Assembly (NCBI RefSeq): GCF_003334385.1
Contig: NZ_QOWN01000179.1
Strand: one strand, 5' to 3'
DNA from: Escherichia coli
GTDB lineage: Bacteria; Pseudomonadota; Gammaproteobacteria; Enterobacterales; Enterobacteriaceae
Length of the DNA stretch: 462 nucleotides
Shown here: positions 1 to 462 of the stretch, piece after piece
Layout: each line of letters starts with the position of its first letter
Numbering within the stretch: position 1 is the first letter of the stretch
Notes under the pieces: generated by a model
Told to the model about the DNA's origin: nothing
Databases searched by the model: none
What the model saw: the letters and a program-made list of their open reading frames with translations, nothing else
Program-made: the position numbers and the translations under genes

Positions 1-16
1 TATTTTCCGAATGCAT
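1..16 (-). CDS. Possible 5-prime end of a leftward-transcribed gene (only the first 5 codons, M-H-S-E-N, are in the window); product unknown
   Basis: Minus-strand ATG (plus-strand CAT at 14..16) is preceded by a perfect AGGAGG Shine-Dalgarno (plus-strand CCTCCT 22..27) with a 5-nt spacer. The open frame runs off the left edge. Too little coding sequence to assess further. Confidence 0.3.
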
Positions 17-21
17 AATGA

Positions 22-27
22 CCTCCT
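22..27 (-). promoter_or_regulatory. Shine-Dalgarno / ribosome-binding site (AGGAGG) for the putative minus-strand start at 16..14
   Basis: Perfect AGGAGG on the minus strand, 5 nt upstream of ATG. The spacer is at the short end of the usual range. Confidence 0.3.
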
Positions 28-46
28 CTGGAATATCCCACCAATG

Positions 47-64
47 CTATAGTGAGTATATAAA
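47..64 (-). promoter_or_regulatory. Sequence resembling a single-subunit (T7/SP6-class) phage RNA polymerase promoter core; function speculative
   Basis: Minus strand reads TTTATATACTCACTATAG (plus 64..47). ACTCACTATAG matches positions -10 to +1 of the T7 class III consensus TAATACGACTCACTATAG exactly, and CACTATAG is the core shared by T7/SP6/K11-type promoters; the upstream block is AT-rich as in those promoters. Positions -11/-12 differ from T7 (T,A instead of G,C). It sits ~31 nt upstream of the SD-ATG on the same strand. Could be chance. Confidence 0.15.
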
Positions 65-79
65 GGTCATACCATCTAC

Positions 80-265
80 ATGTTCTTCGGCAACGATCAT
101 GGAGGCGAGCGCGGAGCTCTGCTGTACGGACTAATCGGGAGCTGTCGGTTGAACGGTATCGATCCAGAAGCGTATCTGCGCCATATCCTGAGCGTACTGC
201 CGGAATGGCCCTCCAACCGTGTTGACGAACTGCTGCCATGGAACGTAGTTTTCACCGATAAATAA
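80..265 (+). pseudogene. IS66-family transposase (TnpC-type DDE transposase), C-terminal fragment only; 3-prime remnant of a gene normally ~500 codons
   Basis: ORF 80..265 translates to MFFGNDHGGERGALLYGLIGSCRLNGIDPEAYLRHILSVLPEWPSNRVDELLPWNVVFTDK. The pattern LF-x-x-x-x-GGER-x-A-x-x-Y-x-LI-x-x-x-(K/R)-LNG-x-DP-x-AYL-x-x-(I/V)L-...-P-x-NR-(V/I)-x-ELLPWN is what I recognise from memory as the conserved C-terminal tail of IS66-family transposases (no search run). The frame is open back to 56 but closed by in-frame TAG (50..52) and TGA (53..55), so the N-terminal ~85% of the protein is absent in this frame. Stop TAA at 263..265. The ATG at 80 is probably an internal Met, not a real start. Confidence 0.8.
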
Positions 266-295
266 GTGTCAATACGGCGCTCTGTTGACGCTTAC
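266..295 (+). repeat. Candidate right terminal inverted repeat (IRR) of the IS66-family element
   Basis: Reverse complement of 266..295 is GTAAGCGTCAACAGAGCGCCGTATTGACAC. It begins with GTAAGCGT, identical to 386..393 on the + strand, and aligns imperfectly with 386..415 beyond that (shared ACAG after a 2-bp indel, shared CCGT further in). IR length is not determinable from this window. Confidence 0.4.
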
Positions 296-296
296 C

Positions 297-389
297 GATA
301 AATATCAGTTCACCTATGACGATGAAAAAATGCTGTCGCTGGCAAAAGAGATGAAAAGCGTGGTTGACAACACATCGAAATATCCGTAA
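297..389 (+). CDS. Candidate 3-prime end of an ORF in the spacer between the two IS-like termini (DKYQFTYDDEKMLSLAKEMKSVVDNTSKYP-stop); product unknown, possibly the tail of an IS-interrupted host gene
   Basis: One + frame is open across the whole 90-bp spacer and terminates at TAA 387..389, which lies inside the GTAAGCG motif. Codon choices (CTG, GAA, AAA, GCA) look like enterobacterial coding sequence, and the overlapping minus-strand ORF has the F/L/I-rich look of an antisense frame. An open frame of this length is not statistically significant alone. Confidence 0.15.
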   Translation, partial: DKYQFTYDDEKMLSLAKEMKSVVDNTSKYP

Positions 390-415
390 GCGTACAGCCT
401 GAACCGTCTGGTCAG
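386..415 (+). repeat. Candidate left terminal inverted repeat (IRL) of a second IS66-like element extending rightward off the window
   Basis: GTAAGCGTACAGCCTGAACCGTCTGGTCAG starts with the same 8-mer as the reverse complement of the putative IRR at 288..295. Orientation is that expected for a left end with the element body to the right. No coding evidence is visible in the remaining 70 bp, so this rests on the terminal motif alone. Confidence 0.25.
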
Positions 416-462
416 AATCTGACGAATTAGACAAAGTGGTGTCCACCAAATAAGTAGTGGGA

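Follow-up and report, generated by a model that had tools for sequence, protein, structure and literature searches.

The -35-like TTGACG hexamer at the right end of an ISEc23-like IS66-family element is very probably a coincidental likeness within its terminal inverted repeat

The hexamer TTGACG at positions 285-290 (+ strand) of the window, the whole 462-base stretch of Escherichia coli DNA analysed here, is a segment of the right inverted repeat (IRR) of a known IS66-family insertion sequence (IS). Judging from sequence comparison, it is very probable that its likeness to a sigma-70 -35 element is coincidental and that no transcription starts from it at this locus. The hexamer has no -10 partner here and is not conserved among relatives of the element, which argues for a chance resemblance to a promoter element; moreover, -10-like hexamers are not enriched at the required spacing in natural insertions. 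A sequence-only reading of the window had described TTGACG as an outward-facing hexamer that lies 5 bp from an IS terminus at 295 and reads into a spacer, had seen no good -10 (AGTTCA / GTTCAC), and had cautioned that any promoter activity would be weak. All of this is borne out by our data, and the caveat was fitting. Its further suggestion, that the hexamer could serve as the -35 of hybrid promoters, found no support. What lies at these coordinates is a known feature, an IS66-family IRR, and nothing supports reading it as a promoter.

Results

The window is a mosaic of IS ends around an hsdR relic

The whole 462-base window has a 100% identical counterpart on the minus strand of the E. coli SCU-104 chromosome (NZ_CP053284.1, 768116-768577), and two further strains match it equally well. 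Its parts were assigned from the RefSeq annotation of the SCU-104 locus and from a relative that lacks the extra ISEc45 insertion (L002). The practical gain is that a confusing mosaic is now annotated as the end of ISEc45, the tnpC tail and IRR of one IS66-family element (#1), a relic of hsdR, and the left inverted repeat (IRL) of a second IS66-family element (#2) (Table 1). The junction between ISEc45 and tnpC at 76/77 (GAAT/TACATG; here and below, a slash within a sequence marks a junction or insertion point) was placed by comparison with uninterrupted tnpC, and a conserved subterminal motif extends beyond the IRR of element #1 to about 267.

Table 1. Features of the 462-base window and the basis of each assignment.
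Feature	Position	Strand	Basis or detail
ISEc45 (IS110-family) end, inserted in IS66 tnpC	1..76	-	RefSeq annotation of the SCU-104 locus
ISEc45 recombinase gene	start ~16, leftwards out of the window	-	RefSeq annotation
tnpC 3' part (DDE transposase), IS66-family element #1	77..265	+	ORF 80..265, stop codon 263-265
Non-coding right end of element #1	266-295	+	
IRR of IS66-family element #1	272..295	+	Reverse complement GTAAGCGTCAACAGAGCGCCGTAT; 21/24 versus IRL of the intact copy
TTGACG hexamer, inverted-repeat positions 11 to 6 read outward	285..290	+	
Internal hsdR relic of ~90 bp (type I restriction R-subunit), sense strand, between two IS66 insertions	296..386	+	
Left end of second IS66-family element (#2)	387..462	+	IRL GTAAGCGTACAGCCTGAACCGT...; tnpA starts just past the window

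Element #1 is a known IS66-family insertion sequence, ISEc23-like, about 2.53 kb long and organised as tnpA-tnpB-tnpC. Its intact copy (L002, 3684..6219; 2,536 bp) encodes TnpA, TnpB and TnpC in three consecutive genes, each matching its NCBIfam family above the cut-off (TnpA, NF047595, 80.2 versus 74; TnpB, NF033819, 119.8 versus 50; TnpC, NF033517, 437 bits versus 180), and the RefSeq annotation agrees with these matches. The tnpC tail in the window is identical to the end of the 537-aa TnpC of that intact copy. The IS66 family is defined by terminal inverted repeats of 20-30 bp that start with GTAAGCG (PMC11946415). In element #1, the IRL (GTAAGCGTAAACTGACCGCCGTAT) and the reverse complement of the IRR (GTAAGCGTCAACAGAGCGCCGTAT) match at 21 of 24 positions, and both begin GTAAGCGT. 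Like the ends of IS66, IS679, ISEc8, ISEc23 and other IS66-family members, its inverted repeats start 5'-GTAAGCG and are about 24-28 bp long; as in these elements, they flank a tnpA-tnpB-tnpC operon, and 8-bp target duplications occur in its clade. Nothing essential sets element #1 apart from the family. Particular to the window copy are the loss of the target duplication, the interruption by ISEc45, and the head-to-tail arrangement with a second IS66 element across the 91-bp hsdR relic.

Three independent lines of evidence confirm 295 as the IS end: the IRL/IRR pairing, the start of hsdR homology and natural insertion flanks. Homology to intact copies of hsdR begins exactly at 296; about 1000 E. 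coli genomes have an intact hsdR with 98-100% identity to positions 296-385. When metagenomes were scanned with the last 20 bases of the IS as the query, 122 right ends with 98 distinct flanks were recovered, and these 98 flanks diverge directly after ...CGCTTAC. Perfect 8-bp target duplications flank 13 of the 28 complete clade copies in metagenome contigs; the window copy of element #1 has none (GATACATG versus CGATAAAT). Intact hsdR reads GCTCATATG/CGATAAAT...AAATATCC/TGACTGG across both insertion points. The two IS66 elements, the second of which is 2,442 bp long in full (L002, 6310..8751) with an IRL/IRR pair of its own, inserted in hsdR 91 bp apart; later deletions took away the remainder of hsdR, and this explains why neither element retains its 8-bp duplication.

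The repeats within the window are explained by the same layout. The direct repeat ACCGATAAATA (254-264 and 294-304) and an inverted repeat (288-300 and 381-393) arise from the tnpC stop region, the hsdR target and the two facing IS66 termini. The inverted repeat is 13 nt long and 92% complementary, and comprises the facing termini together with their similar flanks (CGATA and TATCC); the similarity of the flanks at both termini may reflect a weak target preference. An ORF at 285..389 (34 aa) that would start with the TTG of the hexamer was rejected as a gene, as it is the IS end fused in frame with the hsdR relic, and no Shine-Dalgarno-like sequence was seen upstream of it. An Rfam scan of the window at E<=1 gave no match.

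The hexamer spans invariant and variable positions of the inverted repeat

TTGACG matches the -35 consensus TTGACA at 5 of 6 positions. CTTAC (5 bp) separates it from the IS end. It reads outward from 296 into the spacer between the two IS66 ends (296-386), and occupies positions 6-11 of the inverted repeat 5'-GTAAGCGTCAAC...-3'. Its variation was followed in 80 IS66-family loci (TnpC 49-100% identical) drawn from about 100,000 species genomes, from which 46 IRL/IRR pairs were recovered. Among these 46 pairs, positions 1-8 (GTAAGCGT) and 19-22 (CCGT) of the inverted repeat are essentially invariant, whereas the IRR varies at positions 9 (C in 29/46), 10 (A in 13/46) and 11 (A in 20/46). The ACG of the hexamer is the family-invariant C6-G7-T8, and its TTG corresponds to the variable positions 9-11, which read CAA in this clade.

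As a consequence of three invariant and three freely varying bases, the outward hexamer matches TTGACA at 5 or more positions in only 7/46 IRRs; this is also the case for 4/46 IRLs, and the most frequent match is 3/6. Even relatives with 71-93% TnpC identity carry a range of outward hexamers (TTGACG, TTTACG, TGGACG, AGTACG, TTATCG, TGATCG and TTAACG); the left end of element #1 has TTTACG, and the ends of element #2 have TGCACG and TGTACG. The conservation among related IS that is expected of a maintained hybrid-promoter -35 was thus not found, as close relatives differ precisely at the TTG. There is also no IRR-specific bias towards CAA at positions 9-11 in the 46 pairs (full CAA in 7 IRRs versus 4 IRLs), and C at position 9 is as common in the IRL (28/46) as in the IRR (29/46), which argues against a right-end-specific pressure towards a -35 element. 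By analogy with DDE transposons in general, the inverted repeat would be the sequence recognised and cut by the transposase TnpC, a role that would explain the presence of the sequence; TnpC would then be expected to contact the bases of the hexamer.

Another -35-like sequence lies in this right end in the opposite orientation. On the minus strand, positions 272..267 (IRR positions 24-29) read as an inward-facing TTGAC(A/G), which is far better conserved in IS66 right ends than the outward hexamer (T24 in 40/46, T25 in 43/46, G26 in 41/46, A27 in 39/46); left ends of the family have CTGGAC or CTGTAC instead. This sequence is probably the inner part of a predicted transposase-binding site (CCGTNTKGAC). 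Read as a -35 element, it finds only a poor partner, TACGTT at 19 bp, and the pair scores 10.05 bits on the scale described below, which is at chance level.

TTGACG has no -10 partner at this locus

Downstream of TTGACG, hexamers at spacings of 14-20 bp match TATAAT at only 1-2 of 6 positions and lack A2 and T6, and the TG of an extended -10 is absent. At the 16-18 bp required for sigma-70, the hexamers are AGTTCA, GTTCAC and TTCACC, each with 1-2/6. The -35 at 285 was scored with a simple position-weight model derived from classical consensus-base frequencies, which is an approximation: it reached 2.9 bits in the best case (19-bp spacer) and 0.2 bits with spacers of 16-18. On the same scale, shuffled copies of the window peaked at 9.3 +/- 1.7 bits, and wild-type lac scores about 9.2 bits and a perfect consensus 17.1 bits. 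In the window, a consensus promoter scan returned 0 promoter-like sites and a terminator scan 0 terminator-like sites.

The occurrence of TTGACG itself is not above chance: the two strands of the window hold 8 hexamers that match TTGACA at 5 or more positions (two of them perfect), versus 4.6 +/- 2.2 expected by chance. With no -10 at a usable distance, TTGACG would form no promoter at this locus, and transcription is not expected to initiate from it. Beyond the IS end, the hexamer faces a dead 91-bp piece of hsdR followed by the second IS66 element, so that there is nothing downstream for it to drive.

One of the better -35 matches, a perfect TTGACA at 364-369 (+), is located in the hsdR relic, and the tip of element #2 follows 17-18 bp downstream. 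At this distance the -10 position falls on the invariant start of the IRL (TAAGCG or AAGCGT), and the combination scores 5.9-7.8 bits, which is not promoter-like.

Natural insertions of the clade show no excess of hybrid promoters

Hybrid promoters were predicted for the 98 distinct clade flanks by pairing TTGACG with the flank hexamer at 16-18 bp, and other offsets in the same flanks served as controls. Predicted hybrids of at least 9.2 bits were obtained for 8/98 natural flanks versus 69/490 control offsets (Fisher p=0.14), and natural flanks did not score higher than controls (Mann-Whitney test for greater score, p=0.99; mean 3.7 versus 4.6 bits). Across the 98 flanks, -10-like hexamers are therefore not enriched at the required spacing. 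Good hybrids do arise, for instance TTGACG-16-TAAAAT (13.8 bits), and ...TTGACGCTTAC/CGATGTCATCCTAAAATC exemplifies a natural junction that provides a good -10. Their frequency is nevertheless that of chance: 8/98 does not exceed 69/490, and is what one would expect from a -35-like hexamer of any kind. By predicted hybrid score, this window's own flank comes 89th among the 98.

Discussion

IS1, IS2 and IS26/IS257-type elements carry an outward -35 in their terminal repeat that forms hybrid promoters (see the reviews cited in PMC9208149). Element #1 resembles them in having a 5/6 -35-like hexamer that faces outward a few bp from its tip, and in that a minority of the insertion sites of its clade place a -10 at 16-18 bp. 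This is the main counterpoint to our reading: a 5/6 -35 located 5 bp from the tip has the geometry of well-known hybrid-promoter elements, and about 8% of natural clade insertions are predicted by our scoring to make a hybrid of lac strength. TTGACG might accordingly be silent here yet turn on an adjacent gene at every insertion point that has a -10-like hexamer 11-13 bp downstream. We consider this quite unlikely, because the predicted hybrids do not exceed those at control offsets and this locus itself offers no -10, and because the hexamer is conserved neither in the family nor among close relatives and is no more a feature of the IRR than of the IRL, which distinguishes it from the terminal -35 of IS1, IS2 and IS26/IS257. 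The published record points the same way. A promoter-trap study in Paracoccus did catch IS66-family elements, with general traps, but the outward or hybrid promoters found there were ascribed to members of the IS5, IS3, IS21 and IS256 families and not to IS66 (PMC3281130), and a 2022 review of gene activation mediated by transposable elements never mentions IS66 (PMC9330008). In the full-text literature that we searched, no report of an outward or hybrid promoter in an IS66-family element was found, and none of experimental gene activation by IS66 members, again unlike IS1, IS2 and IS26/IS257. Nor did this literature yield anything relevant on how IS66 elements transpose.

A second way in which the hexamer could act is across abutted IS ends. 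Circle-junction promoters (Pjunc) are known for IS911, IS30 and IS256. In circles or head-to-tail dimers of IS66, the -35-like hexamer of the IRR might pair with TAAACT at IRL positions 8-13 and drive tnpA-C. In this respect element #1 is like the copy-out/paste-in IS that have a Pjunc (IS911, IS30, IS256, the IS110 family), with an outward -35-like hexamer in its IRR and a weak -10-like hexamer in its IRL: the clade IRL reads GTAAGCGTAAACT, in which TAAACT matches the -10 consensus at 4/6, A2 and T6 included; a gap of 4-6 bp between the abutted ends would set it 16-18 bp from the -35. Only such a putative junction spacer of 4-6 bp fits; the spacing becomes 20 bp with a spacer of 8 bp, the size of the target duplication, and 12 bp with 0 bp. 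Furthermore, T6 is lost in one related element (TAAACC in L004), and most family members lack both hexamers. Unlike in the Pjunc systems, no circle or tandem junction of IS66 was found, as an IRL follows 0 of the 122 metagenome right ends (an absence that weighs little, since transient circles would rarely be assembled), and the searchable literature yielded no report of an IS66 circle. A junction promoter of this kind appears extremely unlikely. Transcription might also leave the IS from elsewhere, either by read-through of tnpABC or from the pair TTGACG(222-227)-18-TAGTTT(246-251) in the 3' end of tnpC. This would be compatible with a coincidental -35 likeness at 285-290, and it is unlikely although somewhat less so than the preceding two. 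Terminator-like sites are absent from the window, including the stretch between the tnpC stop and the IS end, and the 222/246 pair is the best on the + strand with 10.05 bits; however, windows of this size reach about 10 bits at their best by chance (9.3 +/- 1.7), and the pair lies inside conserved coding sequence, so that its conservation says nothing. Read-through from the IS66 promoter is unlikely because tnpC of this copy is interrupted by the 1.45-kb ISEc45 in the opposite orientation.

We therefore retain the reading of TTGACG as an IRR segment with a coincidental -35 likeness. That the hexamer of the ISEc23-like IRR is a working -35, whether through a 4-6 bp junction with the IRL that boosts tnpABC or as a hybrid donor at about 8% of sites, seems to us very unlikely. 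If it were, insertions of IS66-family elements could occasionally activate neighbouring genes, and there would be a hint of a junction promoter for the poorly understood transposition pathway of IS66; pairing with the TAAACT of the IRL would for the first time give evidence of the use of such a promoter by IS66 elements. The locus also serves as a worked example: before a -35 look-alike at an IS terminus is called a promoter, its conservation and its flanks should both be tested.

The recurrence of ISEc45 in tnpC is more interesting than the hexamer. ISEc45, a member of the IS110 family of about 1,446 bp (L001, 4631-6076), is found at one fixed site in IS66-family tnpC, GGGAAAAAGAAT/TACATGTTCTTCGG, and this target site encodes the conserved motif GKKNYMFFG. 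With 92-100% identity, the same ISEc45/tnpC junction recurs on chromosomes and plasmids in 889 records (among 5,426 complete E. coli genomes, 862 have it), and 10 of the 86 metagenome ends show it too. Such recurrence suggests that one IS family targets another in a sequence-specific way, with ISEc45 directed to a conserved tnpC motif. IS110-family elements choose their targets by RNA guidance. In the literature searched, ISEc45 appears only in mobilome inventories. On the recombinase strand, TTGACA occurs without mismatch at the far end of ISEc45 (L001, 4631-4665), 12 nt from the tip. Circularisation of ISEc45 would bring it to 17 bp from TATGAC, a -10 that lacks T6, in the end that lies in the window (60-76); the two hexamers are a possible IS110-type junction promoter.

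Nested IS events were also seen in metagenome contigs (L119, L201 and one right-end flank, ATTTGGTGGACACCACTTTGTCTAATTCGT). One metagenome copy of element #1, 3,978 bp long with ISEc45 inside it, has kept a perfect 8-bp target duplication. A metagenome copy of element #1 is inserted, in inverse orientation, in the left-end region of a #2-like element, and its flank is the reverse complement of window positions 421-450.
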